This document shows, piece by piece, positions 32,237 to 39,791 of a stretch of DNA of 64,000 nt. Position 1 is the stretch's first letter. Each line of letters starts with the position of its first letter. The stretch is from an uncultured Chloroflexia bacterium (GTDB taxonomy: Bacteria; Chloroflexota; Limnocylindria; Limnocylindrales; CSP1-4), in assembly GCA_963828165.1 (NCBI GenBank), contig CAWHDR010000001.1, positions 1,056,001 through 1,120,000 of the forward strand, given 5' to 3'. Under the pieces are notes generated by a model, which worked only from the letters and a program-made list of their open reading frames with translations, did not search any database and was not told where the DNA came from. The position numbers and the translations under genes were made by a program.

Positions 32237-32938
32237 GTGCTCGTCATCCCCTCGATCGACCTCGAGAACGGCCGCTCACGCGTGGTCTACTGGCCGGGCG
32301 CTTCCGAGGGGACCGGTGCGCCGACGGATCGGCCGGAACGGATCGTCGAGCGGCTCGTCGCGGAGGGTGCTCGCCTCATCCACCTGATCGATTTCGAGGG
32401 TGCGCGAGCCGGCAAGCCGGTCAGCCTGGAAGCGGTCGGCGCCGTCGCGTCGAAGAGCGCCGTGCCCCTGCAGCTCGCGGGCGGCCTCGATTCCGCCGAG
32501 GCGATCCAGCTCGCGTTCGCGGCCGGCGCGACCCGGGTCGTGCTGACCACGGCCATCGCCGACCGTCCCGACGAGCTCCGGGCGTGCCTCGCGATCGCCG
32601 GTGGCTGGCTCGCCGTGGGCCTGGATCCTCGGCCGGAACGGCTGGCCGCCTTTCCCTGGCGACGGTCGCCCGCCCCGACGATCGCGGAGCTCGTCGAGGA
32701 GCTCATCGGCGCGGGGGTCGGGCGCCTGGTGCTCGCTCATGGCGGGACGGCTCCGGACCTCGAGCGGGTGGGTTCGCTCGTTCGGTCGTACGATGCCGAG
32801 ATCCTGGTAGCCGGTGGGGTGCGCGACCTCGACGCCATCCGCCGACTGCGCGACACCGGTGCCGCCGGCGTCATCCTCGGTGAGGCGATCCTCTCCGGGG
32901 CCATCGACCTTCCCGCAGCCCTGGAGGCCGCCGCATGA
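32237..32938 (+). CDS. Divergent HisA/HisF-like TIM-barrel protein
   Basis: VIPSIDL, HLIDFEGA, QLAGG, VAGGVRDLD, GVILGEA. Confidence 0.75.
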   Translation: MLVIPSIDLENGRSRVVYWPGASEGTGAPTDRPERIVERLVAEGARLIHLIDFEGARAGKPVSLEAVGAVASKSAVPLQLAGGLDSAEAIQLAFAAGATRVVLTTAIADRPDELRACLAIAGGWLAVGLDPRPERLAAFPWRRSPAPTIAELVEELIGAGVGRLVLAHGGTAPDLERVGSLVRSYDAEILVAGGVRDLDAIRRLRDTGAAGVILGEAILSGAIDLPAALEAAA

Positions 32939-33627
32939 TCCCTCGCTCCATCCGCGCCATGGCCGCACTCGCCACGCTGGCCGCTGTCGTGGCCTGCACC
33001 GCTGCGCCGGGCGCGTCGCCCTCCGCCGCGCCGCCCTCGCAGGGCCCGCCGTCGCAAGCCGCGCCATCGTCCGCCGCGCCGTCAGGCTCGTCGGCTGCCG
33101 GCTCCTGCCCATCGTCCGAGCCGGCAGCACTGCCCGCGGGCGAGACTCGGACGGTGACGATCGAGACGTCCCAGGGTTCCTTCACGATGGCCCTGCAGGC
33201 GGACCTATCGCCGATCGCCGTCGGCAATTTCGTGGCGCTGGCCGAGTGCGGCTTCTACGACGGCGTCGTCTTCCATCGGCTGGTGCCGGGTTTCGTGATC
33301 CAGGGTGGTGACCCTGACGGCACTGGGACGGGAGGCCCCGGCTACACCATCACGGACGAACCCGTGACCACGGAGTACCAGCGTGGCACCGTCGCCATGG
33401 CTCGCACAGCGCAGCCGAACTCCGTTGGCTCGCAGTTCTTCGTGGTCCTCGACGATGCAGCCCGGGGATCGTTGGCACGGGCCAACACCTACCAGATCAT
33501 CGGCGAAGTGACGGCCGGAATGGATGTGGTCGACACGATCGCCGCCATGCCGAACAGTGGCGACCAGACCGGCAACCAAGCCCTTGAACCAGTGGCGATG
33601 ACCAAGGTCACCGTCAGCCAACCCTGA
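32935..33627 (+). CDS. Cyclophilin-type PPIase, lipoprotein
   Basis: Lipobox VVAC; FYDGVVFHRLVPGFVIQGGDP, GSQFF. Confidence 0.9.
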   Translation: MIPRSIRAMAALATLAAVVACTAAPGASPSAAPPSQGPPSQAAPSSAAPSGSSAAGSCPSSEPAALPAGETRTVTIETSQGSFTMALQADLSPIAVGNFVALAECGFYDGVVFHRLVPGFVIQGGDPDGTGTGGPGYTITDEPVTTEYQRGTVAMARTAQPNSVGSQFFVVLDDAARGSLARANTYQIIGEVTAGMDVVDTIAAMPNSGDQTGNQALEPVAMTKVTVSQP

Positions 33628-33644
33628 TCCGCCATCGAAGGAGC

Positions 33645-34154
33645 ATGCCCATGACCCGAGCCACGATCGCCACGGAGATCGGCGACATCGAGATCGAGCT
33701 CTACGACGAGAGCGCCCCCAAAGCAGCCAAGAACTTCATCGACCTCGCGAAGAAGGGCTTCTACGACGACGTCATCTTCCACCGCGTCATCCCGGGCTTC
33801 GTCATCCAGGGCGGCGATGGCCAGTACGGCAAGAAATCGTCGCTCGAGCGCGGTCGGGTCGGAACCGGCGGACCCGGGTACAAGTTCGAGGACGAGCCGG
33901 TCACCGGTGAATACCAGCGCGGGTCGCTCGCGATGGCGAATGCCGGTCCCAACACGAACGGCAGTCAGTTCTTCATCTGTACAGCCGACCTGGCCGGGAA
34001 GCTGCCGAAGAACTACACGCTGTTCGGGCAGGTGACCCGTGGGCTTGACATCGTGGACAAGATCGTCTCGGCGCCGCGCGACGGCAAGGACCTCCCGAAC
34101 GACCCCGTCGCGATGACGAAGGTGACGGTGCATGAGGAGGCGGCGAGCCAGTAG
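33645..34154 (+). CDS. Cytoplasmic cyclophilin-type PPIase
   Basis: FHRVIPGFVIQGGD, MANAGPNTNGSQFF. Confidence 0.93.
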   Translation: MPMTRATIATEIGDIEIELYDESAPKAAKNFIDLAKKGFYDDVIFHRVIPGFVIQGGDGQYGKKSSLERGRVGTGGPGYKFEDEPVTGEYQRGSLAMANAGPNTNGSQFFICTADLAGKLPKNYTLFGQVTRGLDIVDKIVSAPRDGKDLPNDPVAMTKVTVHEEAASQ

Positions 34155-34211
34155 CCGGAACGAACTGACGAAAGATTAAGGAATTTACACAGTTCTCCTT
34201 GCCAAAAAGCC

Positions 34212-34240
34212 TTGGAAAACGGCCCCTCGCAAGGTAGGAT
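34212..34240 (+). promoter_or_regulatory. Sigma70-type promoter with AT-rich upstream region
   Basis: TTGGAA-N17-TAGGAT. Confidence 0.6.
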
Positions 34241-34246
34241 ATGGAG

Positions 34247-34417
34247 GCTGTTAAGGCAGCGCTGCCCCAGCGTCAAGGTCATGGGTAGGTAGGGTCAGGG
34301 TAGTCGGTGCAGCCGACGTGATAGATGCCTTTGGCGCGTGGCAGAAGCGTCCGCCTCGGCGGACTCCTTCACCGGGACAGCATCGAAGCGGCTCCTTCGG
34401 GAGCCGCTTCGTCGTTT
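34247..34417 (+). ncRNA. Candidate structured non-coding RNA (~170 nt)
   Basis: Own promoter, nested pairing, no credible ORF, ends in a UUCG hairpin. Confidence 0.55.
34384..34417 (+). terminator. Intrinsic terminator
   Basis: CGAAGCGGCTCC-TTCG-GGAGCCGCTTCG-TCGTTT. Confidence 0.75.
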
Positions 34418-34519
34418 GTCCGGCGCCATTCGGAAGGGACGATCGGGCCCCAGGGATCGAGCGCCAGGCGGGCCCACCCCACTATCAGGATCGTGGGTCG
34501 ATCTCGCGCATGTAATCAT

Positions 34520-34579
34520 GCTACTTGACAGTAGCCGGTTCTCGGTACAGGATATGTGCTACGGAGTGGTAGCACATAT
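34520..34579 (+). promoter_or_regulatory. Promoter (TTGACA) with two GCTAC-N6-GTAGC palindromes
   Basis: GCTAC-TTGACA-GTAGC (34520-34535); ATATGTGCTAC-GGAGTG-GTAGCACATAT (34552-34579). Confidence 0.7.
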
Positions 34580-34606
34580 TCCGCTCCGGTACGAAGGAGC
34601 ACCGAG

Positions 34607-35029
34607 ATGGCTGCCATCACACGCGGCAACACCCAGGTCCACCCCCTCACCATCGCCCTCAGGGCCGGCGTCGTCGGTCTCACATTTGCCACCGCCGCGA
34701 TCCACGCGTCGCTCGGCGGCATGCTGTTCCTGGCCAACGCAGCGGGCTACACGATCCTTGCCATCGCGATGGTCATTCCCGGTGCCGTCGGAAAGTGGCG
34801 ATGGCTGATCCGCCTCGTCTTGATCGGCTTCGCCGCCGCCACGATCGGCGGCTGGGTCGCCTTCGGCCCTCGCTTCGGGCTCGCGTATCTCGACAAGGCG
34901 ATCGAGGTCGCGCTCATCGGCGTCCTCCTGATCGAACAGTGGCAGTCCGACGGTGGCCCGCGCGGCGTGCTCCGTAAGGTCCGCGGCCTGGTGCGCAGCA
35001 CGGGGACCTTCGCGAGCAACGCCAGGTAG
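34607..35029 (+). CDS. Membrane protein (about 4 TM)
   Basis: AAGGAG RBS; TAAIH, LFLANAAGY, DKAIE. Confidence 0.75.
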   Translation: MAAITRGNTQVHPLTIALRAGVVGLTFATAAIHASLGGMLFLANAAGYTILAIAMVIPGAVGKWRWLIRLVLIGFAAATIGGWVAFGPRFGLAYLDKAIEVALIGVLLIEQWQSDGGPRGVLRKVRGLVRSTGTFASNAR

Positions 35030-35072
35030 CAGTCCCCGACCGTCCTACGGCGAAGCGAACGAGCTGGCCGCC

Positions 35073-38000
35073 TCAGGCCAGCTCGTCGGCGGGCTCGACG
35101 AGACCCAACCGGTACGCGAGGGCCGCCGCCTCGCCACGCCCCGCCACTCCGAGCTTGCCAAGGATGTTCGACACGTGGACGCCGGCGGTGTTCTCGCTGA
35201 TGAACAGCTCGTCGGCGATCTGGCGGTTCGTACGACCGAGCGCGACGAGGCCGAGGACCTCGCGCTCGCGCGGCGTCAGTCCAAGGCCCGCCGCTTCGTC
35301 CTTCGGGGCGGGCGCTTGCTCCTGCTCGGATTCGAGCGTGAGCCTCGCCCGCGCCGCGAGCGCCGCCACTTCGCGTCCGAGCAAGGCGGCCCCGAGCTCC
35401 GCAGCGATGTCGCGCGCAGCCCGTAACGCCGCGGTGGCCAGAGCCCGATCCCCACGACCCGCCAGGCGGGACTCGGCCTCGCGCCAGCGAGCGTACGCCG
35501 CGGGATAGGGCCGTCCCAGCCGGTCCCACGCCTCGACAGCTGCCAGCCAGGCACCCGGGTCCGGGTGGCGATGCAGGCGCGTCGCCTCCGCCTCACACAG
35601 CAGCAGGAGGGCCGCGGAATACGCTTCAACAGCCGGACGCGTCGCGAGGATGTCGGCATGCCGGCGCCGGATGCCGGCAAGGAGGCCCTCGCCGGCCGCA
35701 ACGAGCTCGCGCACCCGATCGGGCGACCGGCGCGCTCTGGCCAGCTCTGCGGCATCGGCGTTGGCCCGCAGGCCGAGGGCGTACACCTCTCCGATCCGCA
35801 CCTCGGCGTTGTAGTCGATCTGCACGATGGTCGCGGCGACCTGGGTGGCGGCCTCTTCCGGCCGGCCCTGCCACAGCGCCAACTCGGCGAGGCTGGCATG
35901 CACCGGCGCAACGAACTGGATGTCGACGGCTCGGTCTGCGCGCGCCGCGAGTGGCCGCAACAGGTCGGCCGCCACCTCGATGTTGCCGCGAGCCAGCGCC
36001 AGACGGGCCAAAAGCTCCTGCACGAGGATCTCGTTGACCCCGAACGGCCCGAAGCCCTCGGCCCGCCGAACCGCCCGCTCGGCCTCGTCCCAGCGACCCA
36101 GGCGGTAGAGATAGTCCGCCTTGTTGGCGAGCATGTGCGTGCCGAAGAAGCGCATCAGACCCAGCCGTTCCGACGTCGCGATGCCCACCTCGGCCACCGC
36201 GATGGCCTCGTCGAGCCGTCCGGCCCCTTCCAGGACCCACACTCGGTTCGCATACGCCCGGCCGATGTCATCGCCGATGCCCAGGTCCTCCGCGATCGCC
36301 AGGGCGGCGCGGAGGTCCTCGAGCGCCGCGTCGATCTCGCCAGCGACAGCCCGGTCGGCACCCCTCGTGTTGAGGGCGTGGCCCTCGATGTCCCGCGCGC
36401 CGATCGATCGAGCGAGCACGAGCGCTTCCTCGGCCAGCGGGCGGGACTCCTCGAACCGGCCGCCCAGCATCAGGATCTGGGCAAGCCCGGCGATCGCACG
36501 CGCCCGCGCCTCGGACGGCGGTGCAGCGGCGATCAGGCCCATGGCGGTCCGGTACGCCTGTTGCGCGAGCTCGCCCTGACCGGCGATCCAGGCGTACCGC
36601 CCGAGTCGCTCGTTCAGCAAGCCGGCACGGAGGCGGTCGTCCGCCTCATCGGCGAGACGGATCGCGGCCTGCGCGTGCGCCACCGCGCGTGCCGGTTCGT
36701 GGAAGCGGGCGACCCCCGCCAGGGTCGCGAGGAGGTCGATGCGGTCGCGGCCCACCCTGGTTTCGGGGTCCGGTACCTGATCCCAGAGGTCGATCGCCCG
36801 CTCGTACTGGTCGACCGCCTCCGGATACGCGTACCTGGTCTCGGCCGCAGCCCCCGCGGCGACCGCCAATTCGAGCGCGCGAGGCAGATCATGGGCCGCG
36901 TACCAGTGGTAGGCGCGCTCCGCCGCATGCGAGGCGTCGCCCCCGGACCGAGCCTCGAGTGTCCGTGCGAACGCCGAATGCAGACGCGTTCGCTCCCCCG
37001 GCAGCAGGTCGTCGTAGATCGCTTCCTGGAGCAGTGCGTGCCGGAATGCGTAGCGCTCGGTTCCGGTGGTCGGGTCCGCGACGAGGACCTGGCGACCCAC
37101 GCACTCGCGGAGCGCCTCGTAGAGCGCTGCTTCGTCCATCGATGCCGCGACGGCCAGGAGGGCCGGGTCGACGCGGTGTCCGGCGGCCGAGGCGATCCGC
37201 AGGAGCTCCTGGGTCGGCTCGGCGAGGTCGGCGATCCGCGCGAGGAGCACGTCGCGAAGCGTCTGGGGCAGCTCGGTCCGGCCGTCGTCGCCGGCGGCGA
37301 CCAGCAGCTCTTCCGCGAAGAACGCGTTGCCGCCCGAGCGAGCGTGGATCGACTCGATGAGCGAGGCGTCGAGATCGTGGCCCGCGATCGCACGCAGCTG
37401 GTCCGCAGACTCCCGGTGATCGAAGGGCTTGAGGTCGAGCCGGTCGACGCGGCCGGATCGTTCCAGCTCGGCGATGAAGGGCAGGAGGGGATGGCGTCGG
37501 TGGAGCTCGTCCGAGCGGTAGGTGAAGAGGAGCATCACCGCGGTGTCGCGGAGATTGCGAACCAGGAACCCGAGCAGGTCGCGGGTCGAGCGGTCGGACC
37601 AGTGCAGGTCCTCGACGATGAAGACCACAGGGGTCGCTGTCGCGAGGCGTTCCAGCACCCCGAGCAAGATCTCGAAGAGCCGGCCCTGGGCGTGGTCCAG
37701 GCTGAGCGCGGATGCGGGTGCCTCGGACACGGGGCCGAGATCCGGGATGAGCCGCGCGAGCTCCGAGCGCCCGGGACCGATCACCGTCTCCAGCTGATCG
37801 GGTCCGGCGTGTCGCGCCAAGCCGCGCAGGGCTTCGACCACGGGTGCGTAGGGCATCGCTCCGTCGCCGAGGTCGATGCAGCCGCCCGAGAGGACGATCG
37901 CGCCCTCGGTCTCCGCCAGCTCGGTGAACGCGGCGAGCAGCCTCGTCTTGCCGACGCCGGCCTCCCCGGCCACGACCATCGCGCTGCCCCGCCCTTCCCG

Positions 38001-38081
38001 CGCGACGCGGATGGCGTCCCGAAGCCGCCCAAGCTCCGTCGAGCGACCGATGAGCACTGGGCTCGAGACGCGGACCGACAT
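35073..38081 (-). CDS. LuxR-family regulator with AAA ATPase and TPR region (MalT/LAL-like)
   Basis: GEAGVGKTRL, VEDLHWSD, GGNAFF, LTPREREVL..GRTNRQIA..HVSNILGKL. Confidence 0.93.
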   Translation of the reverse strand: MSVRVSSPVLIGRSTELGRLRDAIRVAREGRGSAMVVAGEAGVGKTRLLAAFTELAETEGAIVLSGGCIDLGDGAMPYAPVVEALRGLARHAGPDQLETVIGPGRSELARLIPDLGPVSEAPASALSLDHAQGRLFEILLGVLERLATATPVVFIVEDLHWSDRSTRDLLGFLVRNLRDTAVMLLFTYRSDELHRRHPLLPFIAELERSGRVDRLDLKPFDHRESADQLRAIAGHDLDASLIESIHARSGGNAFFAEELLVAAGDDGRTELPQTLRDVLLARIADLAEPTQELLRIASAAGHRVDPALLAVAASMDEAALYEALRECVGRQVLVADPTTGTERYAFRHALLQEAIYDDLLPGERTRLHSAFARTLEARSGGDASHAAERAYHWYAAHDLPRALELAVAAGAAAETRYAYPEAVDQYERAIDLWDQVPDPETRVGRDRIDLLATLAGVARFHEPARAVAHAQAAIRLADEADDRLRAGLLNERLGRYAWIAGQGELAQQAYRTAMGLIAAAPPSEARARAIAGLAQILMLGGRFEESRPLAEEALVLARSIGARDIEGHALNTRGADRAVAGEIDAALEDLRAALAIAEDLGIGDDIGRAYANRVWVLEGAGRLDEAIAVAEVGIATSERLGLMRFFGTHMLANKADYLYRLGRWDEAERAVRRAEGFGPFGVNEILVQELLARLALARGNIEVAADLLRPLAARADRAVDIQFVAPVHASLAELALWQGRPEEAATQVAATIVQIDYNAEVRIGEVYALGLRANADAAELARARRSPDRVRELVAAGEGLLAGIRRRHADILATRPAVEAYSAALLLLCEAEATRLHRHPDPGAWLAAVEAWDRLGRPYPAAYARWREAESRLAGRGDRALATAALRAARDIAAELGAALLGREVAALAARARLTLESEQEQAPAPKDEAAGLGLTPREREVLGLVALGRTNRQIADELFISENTAGVHVSNILGKLGVAGRGEAAALAYRLGLVEPADELA

Positions 38082-38152
38082 GCCTTCGATTATCGGGCCA
38101 GGGATCCATTCGCCTCGAGGAAGTCGTTGCGGTTCCTCGTCTGTTACGGCGG

Positions 38153-38332
38153 TCACGCGGCTGCGCCCACGCGCTTGAGCCGCCTGACGACGGCGAGGGT
38201 GAGCCTGGCGCGCCACGGTCGGGCGGGCTGTCGCTCGACGGCGGTGGTCTTCATCAGCCGGCCGCCGTCGGCTTCATGCCGCAGTTCCTGCAACCGCTCC
38301 GTTCCCAACAGTTCCATCGCGTAACCGGTCAT
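38153..38332 (-). CDS. Small protein (59 aa), absent from the ORF track
   Basis: GGGAGG RBS; MTGYAMELLGTERLQELRHEADGGRLMKTTAVERQPARPWRARLTLAVVRRLKRVGAAA. Confidence 0.55.
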   Translation of the reverse strand: MTGYAMELLGTERLQELRHEADGGRLMKTTAVERQPARPWRARLTLAVVRRLKRVGAAA

Positions 38333-39715: not shown

Positions 39716-39791
39716 GCGCCTGTAGCTCAGTGGATAGAGCGTCGGCCTCCGGAGCCGAAGGTCGCAGGTTCGAATCCTGTCGGGCGCGCCA
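39716..39791 (+). tRNA. tRNA-Arg(CCG)
   Basis: GCGCCTGTAGCTCAGTGGATAGAGC..CTCCGGA..GGTTCGAATCC..CGGGCGCGCCA. Confidence 0.96.

Follow-up and report, generated by a model that had tools for sequence, protein, structure and literature searches.

Positions 34247-34417 of the forward strand of the stretch analysed here, a 64,000-nucleotide portion of the genome of an uncultured Chloroflexia bacterium (contig CAWHDR010000001.1, positions 1,056,001 to 1,120,000; hereafter the window), almost certainly constitute a stand-alone non-coding RNA gene that is real, independent and novel. The RNA is highly expressed, abundant and stable, and it defines a new family, given that no catalogued family matches it. 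This family is specific to part of the class Candidatus Limnocylindria (Chloroflexota), and its carriers are uncultured soil and freshwater bacteria. The helices of the RNA covary between lineages, and one arm carries an internal loop whose G-rich strand is practically invariant. Taken as a whole, the reading that we favour from these sequence patterns, and which in our judgement falls a little short of an even chance, is that this abundant stand-alone RNA would act in trans, its loop binding a macromolecular partner that is likely to be a protein.

The gene occupies part of an intergenic gap of 453 nt, with a cyclophilin gene (33645-34154, +) on its 5' side and a small membrane-protein open reading frame (ORF; from about 34608, +) on its 3' side. 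The features on which the argument draws are the following.

34247-34417, +: predicted whole primary transcript, about 166-171 nt; the conserved block stops at the terminator
34212-34240, +: predicted promoter, with -35 box TTGGAA (34212-34217), 17-nt spacer and -10 box TAGGAT (34235-34240)
34175-34189, +: conserved element rich in A and T, some 58-72 nt before the predicted start
34247-34260, +: P0, 5' hairpin (GCUG/CAGC)
34261-34267 with 34374-34381, +: P1, closing helix (GCUGCCC with GGGACAGC), A34377 bulged
34270-34278 with 34329-34337, +: P2, 9 bp
34280-34282 with 34325-34327, +: CAU/AUG pairing, invariant
34283-34302, +: 5' strand of the internal loop, 20 nt, G-rich, GGGUAGGU-n-GGGU-n-AGGGUA, proposed functional site
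34303-34317, +: P3 hairpin (GUCGG-UGCAG-CCGAC)
34318-34324, +: 3' strand of the internal loop, GUGAUAG, identical in 148/191 sequences, the others differing at 1-2 places
34338-34343, +: junction strand GUGGCA, between P2 and P4
34344-34370, +: P4 hairpin, base GAAG/CUUC (34344-34347 with 34367-34370), top GUCCGC/GCGGAC (34349-34354 with 34359-34364)
34384-34417, +: intrinsic terminator, 12-bp hairpin with UUCG loop (34384-34411) and weak U-rich tail

The transcript start was placed from the -10 box together with one junction contig from an RNA library (run X3, described below). Both ends of the transcription unit proposed in the initial annotation, a TTGGAA-N17-TAGGAT promoter and a 12-bp C(UUCG)G terminator, are present and conserved among relatives. 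The promoter, which is of the sigma-70 type and the RNA's own, recurs as TTGNNN-N16-18-TANNNT at a fixed upstream distance in 173 of 191 distinct homologues, these being 129/147 of the f1 type, 20/20 of the f2 type and 24/24 of the f4 type (f1 to f5 designate families, with f4 belonging to a second order of Ca. Limnocylindria). A simple promoter scan did not list it, as it matches 8 of 12 consensus letters and the threshold was 9. Nine of the 12 pairs in the terminator stem are G-C and the U-rich tail follows, which is the arrangement expected of an intrinsic terminator, and a terminator scan of 33600-35100 returned this hairpin as the sole terminator-like site. A hairpin of -12 kcal/mol or lower lies downstream of the RNA in 190 of the 191 homologues, with at least three T in the next 8 nt in 112 of them, and 10 of the 12 pairs have changed on both sides in the full-length alignment (A6, defined below). 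No pairing that competes with the terminator was seen. The AT-rich element sits right behind the cyclophilin stop codon in the f1 rows inspected, a similar element is found in f4 loci, and it could be an UP-like or factor-binding site.

Expression was examined in public data, where part of the stretch is found in 24 runs from 21 studies, 13 of these runs being recorded as RNA. Four of the RNA runs, from four studies of soil and ice metatranscriptomes (X3, X5, X11 and X13), were mapped over 33800-34800 using Logan contigs at 85% likeness. The contig depth summed across 34242-34411 was 5,180-56,565 in X5, 139-628 in X11, 46-117 in X13 and 26-54 in X3; it was 0 at 34446-34615 in all four runs and 0-32 at 34140-34241. 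Contig depth in the RNA libraries is restricted to 34242-34411, which bears on the initial annotation's call for a check of RNA-sequencing data for a discrete transcript, and there it exceeds the depth of the flanks, the end of the cyclophilin gene among them, by factors of tens to thousands.

Two of these runs contain contigs that merit separate description. In X13, adapter letters at both contig ends flank 34260-34380, which are the outer ends of P1, and this hints weakly at trimming of the RNA to about 120 nt. A single contig of X3 links 34412, at the end of the terminator stem, to the 5' end of a relative's copy and then continues into the core; the relative's part consists of 19 letters of P0 and linker, starting two letters before P0, and in window coordinates 34412 is joined to 34261. 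This contig could have arisen as an assembly loop, the short RNA being very abundant, or it could reflect ligation of the 3' end to the 5' end.

Folding energy alone cannot pick the strand, since the plus strand folds at -83.7 kcal/mol with z = -3.13 and the minus strand has the lower z of -4.85. The plus strand is settled by the many G-U pairs, which would be A-C mismatches on the other strand, and an RNA read from the minus strand was rejected given that the promoter and the U-tail are likewise compatible with the plus strand only. A protein-coding reading was also rejected: the overlapping ORFs run beyond the conserved block, and an ATG within the core opens a frame of 3 codons before a stop in this genome and of 19 codons in family f2. 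The structural model itself rests on alignments of the genus with f2, of f4 with divergent f1 genera, and on A6, which comprises 73 diverse full-length f1-type sequences aligned with MAFFT and not fitted to structure; a further alignment of the core, A5, contains 90 sequences and is model-fitted. In A6, 96.7% of cells are paired, compared with 33-45% when the partners are slid, both sides have changed in 18 of 36 pairs, and none of 500 shuffles reached the observed level. In A5, 95.6% of cells are paired and both sides have changed in 15 of 22 pairs. P0, P1, P2, P3, P4 and the terminator covary, such that the conserved structure in relatives which the initial annotation had proposed looking for was found, and the overall fold is predicted to be a 5' hairpin (P0) followed by a three-way junction, made up of P1, the P2-P3 arm and P4, and then by the terminator.

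The individual helices differ in how they have changed. P0 is variable in sequence, with many compensating variants in A6, and is absent from family f2. Five of the seven pairs of P1 are kept in all 147 f1-type sequences and the other two in 145-147; its outer pair is G-C in 133, G-U in 8 and A-U in 6 of these, 99.8% of its cells are paired in A6, and the equivalent helix in f2 is kept in 20/20 sequences with different letters. For P2 taken together with CAU/AUG, both-side changes are seen in 8 of 12 pairs in A5 and 6 of 12 in A6. CAU/AUG itself, which had been noted as a pairing in the initial annotation, never varies, so that the alignments are neither for nor against that part. P3 is paired in 100% of cells and has changed on both sides in 4 of its 5 pairs (A5), taking the form of 6 bp with a GAAA loop in f4. 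The top of P4 has been rebuilt with other letters in many genera, three base pairs being kept in 124-143 of 147 sequences, and f4 is without P4, having a longer rod in its place.

This model retains much of the pairing proposed in the initial annotation and redraws the rest. The side hairpin GTCGG/CCGAC is strongly supported as P3, GTCCGC/GCGGAC forms the top of P4 (34349-34364), and GCGTCA/TGGCGC together with AGG/CCT are strongly supported as the single 9-bp helix P2. The pairing GCTGTT/GACAGC has been replaced: its first GCTG is part of P0, which covaries independently, and the 3' partner pairs instead with the second GCTG, in the GCTGCCC of P1. AAGG/CCTT is not conserved, because AAGG lies within the variable loop of P0. 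Only part of the proposal for CTGCC/GGCAG stands. It is possible in f1, where it fits as well as P1 and shows no double change, but the two are mutually exclusive and it is kept in just 10-15 of 20 f2 sequences.

The P2-P3 arm is interrupted by an asymmetric internal loop, with 20 nt on one strand and 7 nt on the other, the longer strand being the G-rich tract that had been described as unpaired and that is present and invariant. The exact motif, CAUGGGUAGGU-n(0-3)-GGGU-n-AGGGUAG, occurs in 118 of 119 loci obtained by BLAST or model searches, the remaining one differs by one letter, and the G-rich strand is practically invariant across two orders. It is the linkers that vary. Across the 191 distinct sequences the first linker is empty in 20, one letter long in 147 (A in 88, U in 40, C in 19) and two letters long in 24, and the second, of 1 nt, is C in 103, U in 67 and A in 21. 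In none of the 191 sequences is there a G in the variable linker positions; part of this set was retrieved by the motif, but the motif left these positions free. The invariant runs of GGG, GG, GGG and GGG, with loops of UA, of U plus 0-2 nt and of U-N-A, conform to the sequence pattern of a G-quadruplex. Fixed G-runs joined by variable, G-free linkers suggest a compact G-dependent fold, possibly a two-layer G-quadruplex, or else recognition run by run.

Searches among related genomes place the RNA within a defined part of the phylum. With BLASTN, 20 of the 24 other genomes in the genus gave the entire block, at 83-95% identity, and within the genus conservation spans from just past the cyclophilin stop codon to the terminator. 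For family f2, whose genomes are reduced to 1.0-1.4 Mb and yet have retained the RNA, every one of the 16 genomes sampled gave a core of 55-69 nt at 82-87% identity. A covariance model built on the RNA core (R1) matched 141 of 151 genomes and 25 of 27 genera of the order at 81-110 bits, with a single match per genome except in two assemblies. Across the class, R1 matched 42/44 genomes of f1, 6/6 of f2 and 47/50 of f4 (38-57 bits), and 0/49 of f3 and 0/1 of f5; the f4 tally takes in two genomes flagged as unpublished (G249 and G231), and no claim depends on them alone. In a phylum sample of 151 genomes searched with a broader model (R2), matches were limited to f1, f2 and f4 (12/14), with none in 136 genomes of other Chloroflexota families. 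With lax filters, R2 gave no credible match in five genomes, four of f3 and one of f5, and cyclophilin/RNA synteny was absent from the DUF885 loci of three f3 genomes. The f5 genome has a tRNA-Arg(CCG) locus without the RNA upstream, and f3 gave no close match to that tRNA.

A scan for the exact motif across the genomes of 185,579 species gave at least 119 loci, and among the 80 matches listed nearly all are titled Chloroflexi, Chloroflexota or Candidatus Limnocylindria/Limnocylindrales. A phage or mobile origin was considered and rejected, with 0 motif matches in viral contigs. Five of the listed motif contigs carry other titles (L131, L133, L136, L143 and L156), namely Steroidobacteraceae (2), Polarisedimenticolia, Anaerolineaceae and Sulfomarinibacteraceae; the RNA copies on them are of the ordinary f1 or f4 type, and mislabelled or misbinned contigs seem likelier here than transfer.

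Upstream of the RNA, gene order is kept on one strand, running from a DUF885 gene through a HisA-like gene (in some lineages) and one or two cyclophilin genes (in most) to the RNA, and in some genera the RNA directly follows the HisA-like gene with the cyclophilin gene absent between them. The downstream genes differ by lineage and are frequently on the opposite strand; those seen encode glucose dehydrogenase, HD hydrolase, DinB, L-PSP, GGDEF-EAL, luciferase-like, amidase, VIT1, KdpD, fumarase, ChrB and glycolipid-binding proteins. Because these genes vary between lineages, we reject the idea that the RNA is the leader of the next gene. A riboswitch or cis-acting leader would be expected in the 5' untranslated region (UTR) of a constant gene, and what follows here is variable, on the opposite strand or a tRNA gene. 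The initial annotation had also thought a mere leader unlikely, on the grounds that the downstream gene has a TTGACA promoter of its own; that element is present at 34525-34530, and the RNA's own promoter and terminator and the variable downstream genes bear the view out.

The tRNA gene just mentioned is for tRNA-Arg(CCG), and it lies 3' of the RNA on the same strand in all eight f2 and f4 loci examined (L096, L085, L090, L093, L031, L023, L087 and L092), mostly within about 100-200 nt of the RNA core. In the window the same tRNA gene is found at 39716-39791 (+), 5.3 kb downstream of the RNA. Considering these positions together, the ancestral order was probably cyclophilin, RNA, tRNA-Arg, split later by insertion.

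We compared the RNA with known families in several ways. At the gathering thresholds of Rfam 15, the window yields two tRNAs only and the loci of 16 relatives yield tRNAs only, and permissive scans (cmscan to E = 10) of f1, f4 and f2 copies gave nothing near threshold. The novelty of the family thus withstands the cmscan search that had been suggested for it. The initial annotation had seen no hallmarks of signal recognition particle (SRP) RNA, transfer-messenger RNA (tmRNA) or RNase P RNA, and all three identities are rejected, as each gene is matched elsewhere in the genome: SRP RNA on contig C1 at 2331832-2332096 (173 bits), RNase P RNA at 2567425-2567800 (193 bits) and tmRNA at 1250558-1250933 (120 bits), both also on C1. 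Of the two identities it had offered, an unnamed small RNA is supported by the RNA's own promoter and terminator, by the variable downstream genes, by RNA-library contigs that cover the RNA only and by the lack of any Rfam family; the other, a divergent 6S-like RNA, finds no support in the features considered below. A literature search found no paper on this RNA, though most subscription journals lay outside its coverage and a printed description is therefore possible, and among the matches listed for an 8-mer of the loop there were aptamers, microRNAs and unrelated human or viral studies only.

Partial likenesses to several known RNAs are nevertheless apparent. Size, single copy, high abundance, an own transcription unit and a large internal loop between helices are shared with 6S RNA (RF00013), from which the RNA differs in not matching the model, in its three-way junction, in its 5-6-bp distal stem and in the conservation of its loop sequence. 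Orphan non-coding RNAs such as the raiA motif RNA (RF03072) and those of the OLE type are similarly stand-alone, abundant, multi-helix and lineage-limited, with conserved unpaired nucleotides; there is no sequence or model similarity to the raiA motif RNA, however, which occurs in another phylum, and the RNA described here is smaller (about 120-170 nt), with a single G-rich internal loop as its core. CsrB and RsmZ are abundant non-coding RNAs that present repeated short G-containing motifs unpaired, comparable to the three GGGU units here, but in our RNA there is no GGA in hairpin loops, all three units lie in one internal loop and the repeats number three and not many. The Spinach and Mango G-quadruplex aptamers also have four short G-runs with variable non-G linkers between two helices. 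Those aptamers are artificial, in contrast to this natural RNA, in which the run of two G's would allow at most two layers.

In the reading introduced at the outset, the RNA would act in trans and not on a neighbouring gene, the invariant loop would be the site at which a macromolecular partner, most probably a protein, binds specifically, and the helices would present and protect that loop. The RNA would then be the RNA part, the scaffold or the decoy of a ribonucleoprotein. For the particular proposition that the RNA works through its loop as a protein-binding site, we are slightly more tentative than for the reading overall. Several points weigh against it. The invariance of the 119 loci that were retrieved with the loop motif itself is circular, which leaves the invariance count with the 119 BLAST or model loci only, and some of these are the same place fetched twice; related genomes are kin, and so the counts overstate independence. 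The depth values derive from assembled contigs of mixed communities, summed over relatives, in which strand, exact ends and true abundance are unreadable. Lastly, given that P1 and its rival CUGCC/GGCAG fit f1 equally, the junction may switch between two states, and it may be that such a two-state junction would suit a sensor better than a passive scaffold.

Other explanations make different use of the same loop. If the RNA were a base-pairing small RNA, the single-stranded G-rich loop would be a seed for C/U-rich sites in messenger RNAs or other RNAs, making it a mirror image of the 6C RNA of Actinobacteria, which has a C-rich loop. No part of this abundant, stand-alone RNA is more conserved than the loop, which is indeed predicted to be unpaired, but we regard this explanation as unlikely: linker lengths of 0-2 nt between lineages would interrupt a continuous duplex with a conserved target, the variation in linker length and letter does not fit a continuous antisense seed, and the 22 invariant letters far exceed what a seed typically needs. 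No 12-mer complementary to the loop is found elsewhere in the 3.3-Mb genome, complementary 10-mers occurring 1-18 times on both strands together, in a count made without a dedicated seed analysis. A ligand sensor, in which the loop would serve as the aptamer and a bound small molecule or ion would shift the RNA between P1 and CUGCC/GGCAG, would account for an invariant unpaired core within covarying helices, as in riboswitch aptamers, and for two exclusive pairings that are both conserved in f1. We nonetheless think it quite unlikely, considering that there is no constant downstream gene, that the terminator is strong and always present, that the alternative pairing is poorly kept in f2 (10-15/20) and that no Rfam riboswitch family matches.

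A divergent 6S-like RNA, which would bind the RNA polymerase holoenzyme by open-promoter mimicry, now appears very unlikely on the predicted fold. 6S RNA folds as a rod, with a bubble at its centre between a long closing stem and a long terminal stem, and 6S RNAs conserve shape and not sequence; here the rod is replaced by a three-way junction in f1 and f2, the stem past the loop measures 5 bp (6 bp in f4) and the loop sequence is invariant. The RNA is abundant, single-copy, housekeeping-like and about 170 nt long, the genes for SRP RNA, RNase P RNA and tmRNA have each been located elsewhere, and RF00013 has no match to E = 10 in 34100-34650, none at E <= 1 in the whole genome and none in 151 genomes of the Limnocylindria class. 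These points speak for it, but the model detects 6S in just 4-5 of 14 control genomes, so its silence carries little weight, and the 6S RNA of the class is either too divergent for RF00013 or missing. Families f3 and f5 are moreover without both the RNA and a 6S match, which means that the two distributions are not complementary. A small ribozyme or other catalytic RNA with the loop as its active site is highly improbable: catalytic cores do typically show such extreme conservation at positions that are unpaired, yet no Rfam ribozyme family matches, contigs traverse the loop intact at high depth and there is no evident substrate or reaction. Scarcely credible, to our minds, is a cis element, be it a 3' UTR of the cyclophilin operon or a leader of the downstream membrane-protein gene. 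The RNA does always lie behind the DUF885/HisA-like/cyclophilin cluster on the same strand, but it has its own conserved promoter, some genera have the HisA-like gene directly upstream with no cyclophilin between, contigs cover the RNA tens to thousands of times more deeply than the end of the cyclophilin gene, and the downstream genes vary and are preceded by the terminator.

Returning to a protein partner for the loop, one candidate emerged from the genomic neighbourhood. A NYN nuclease with a long arginine-glycine-rich (RGG) tail is encoded on contig C1 at 1120997-1122997 (-), 997 nt past the end of the window and about 31 kb from the RNA. Close orthologues of this NYN-RGG protein (at least 53% identity) are present in 44/44 genomes of f1, 6/6 of f2 and 46/50 of f4 (a tally that takes in the unpublished G249), and in 0/49 of f3 and 0/1 of f5, these being the same families as for the RNA. 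In most of the genomes for which both positions are listed, the NYN gene is on the contig of the RNA, at a distance of 2.7 to about 100 kb (about 5 kb in f2 and mostly 5-15 kb in f4), in a conserved order of DUF885, cyclophilin, RNA, variable genes, DNA polymerase III delta' and NYN. RGG tails bind G-rich and quadruplex RNA. It is conceivable, if a long shot, that the loop folds as a small G-quadruplex-like platform and that the RNA is the dedicated partner of the NYN-RGG nuclease, whether as scaffold, regulator or decoy; were this so, bacteria would possess a natural ribonucleoprotein based on a quadruplex. More distant NYN homologues, at 29-48% identity and in some cases with long open frames, were found in 58 of the 151 phylum genomes, among many other families that lack the RNA, so that the link holds only for the close orthologue group. 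The few assemblies without the RNA and those without NYN do not coincide, and the shared distribution may reflect a single gain or loss.

Some further features of the surrounding DNA are recorded here for completeness. At 32935-34154 there are two cyclophilin genes in tandem, other genera having one, two or none before the RNA; the first encodes a protein, probably exported, that is extended at its N-terminus by about 70 residues with many Ala, Pro and Ser, and the second a plain 169-aa enzyme. Between the TTGACA site and the start of the membrane-protein ORF lies a perfect 11-bp inverted repeat with a 6-nt spacer (34552-34579), which could be an operator or a 5'-UTR hairpin. Further downstream, a 1047-aa ORF at 35073-38216 (-) appears, by eye from its translation, to have an N-terminal ATPase-like region, repeats and a C-terminal LuxR-type helix-turn-helix.

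To our knowledge, highly conserved, abundant and structured RNAs of unassigned function are rare, and such RNAs have earlier proved to be ribozymes, riboswitches or parts of ribonucleoproteins. Among the results of our analysis are the distribution of this RNA at class level, the expression data, a corrected junction, the linker pattern and the co-distribution with NYN-RGG. The family is ready for Rfam as it is, and its inclusion would improve the annotation of several hundred metagenome-assembled genomes. The RNA has been kept in the 1-Mb reduced genomes of an uncultured lineage that is globally common in soil and freshwater, and in metatranscriptomes it ranks with the most abundant non-ribosomal signals at its locus. 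Retention in reduced genomes, together with this abundance and the near-absolute selection on the 20 nt of the loop, points to a basic role in the cell that is new for the Chloroflexota.

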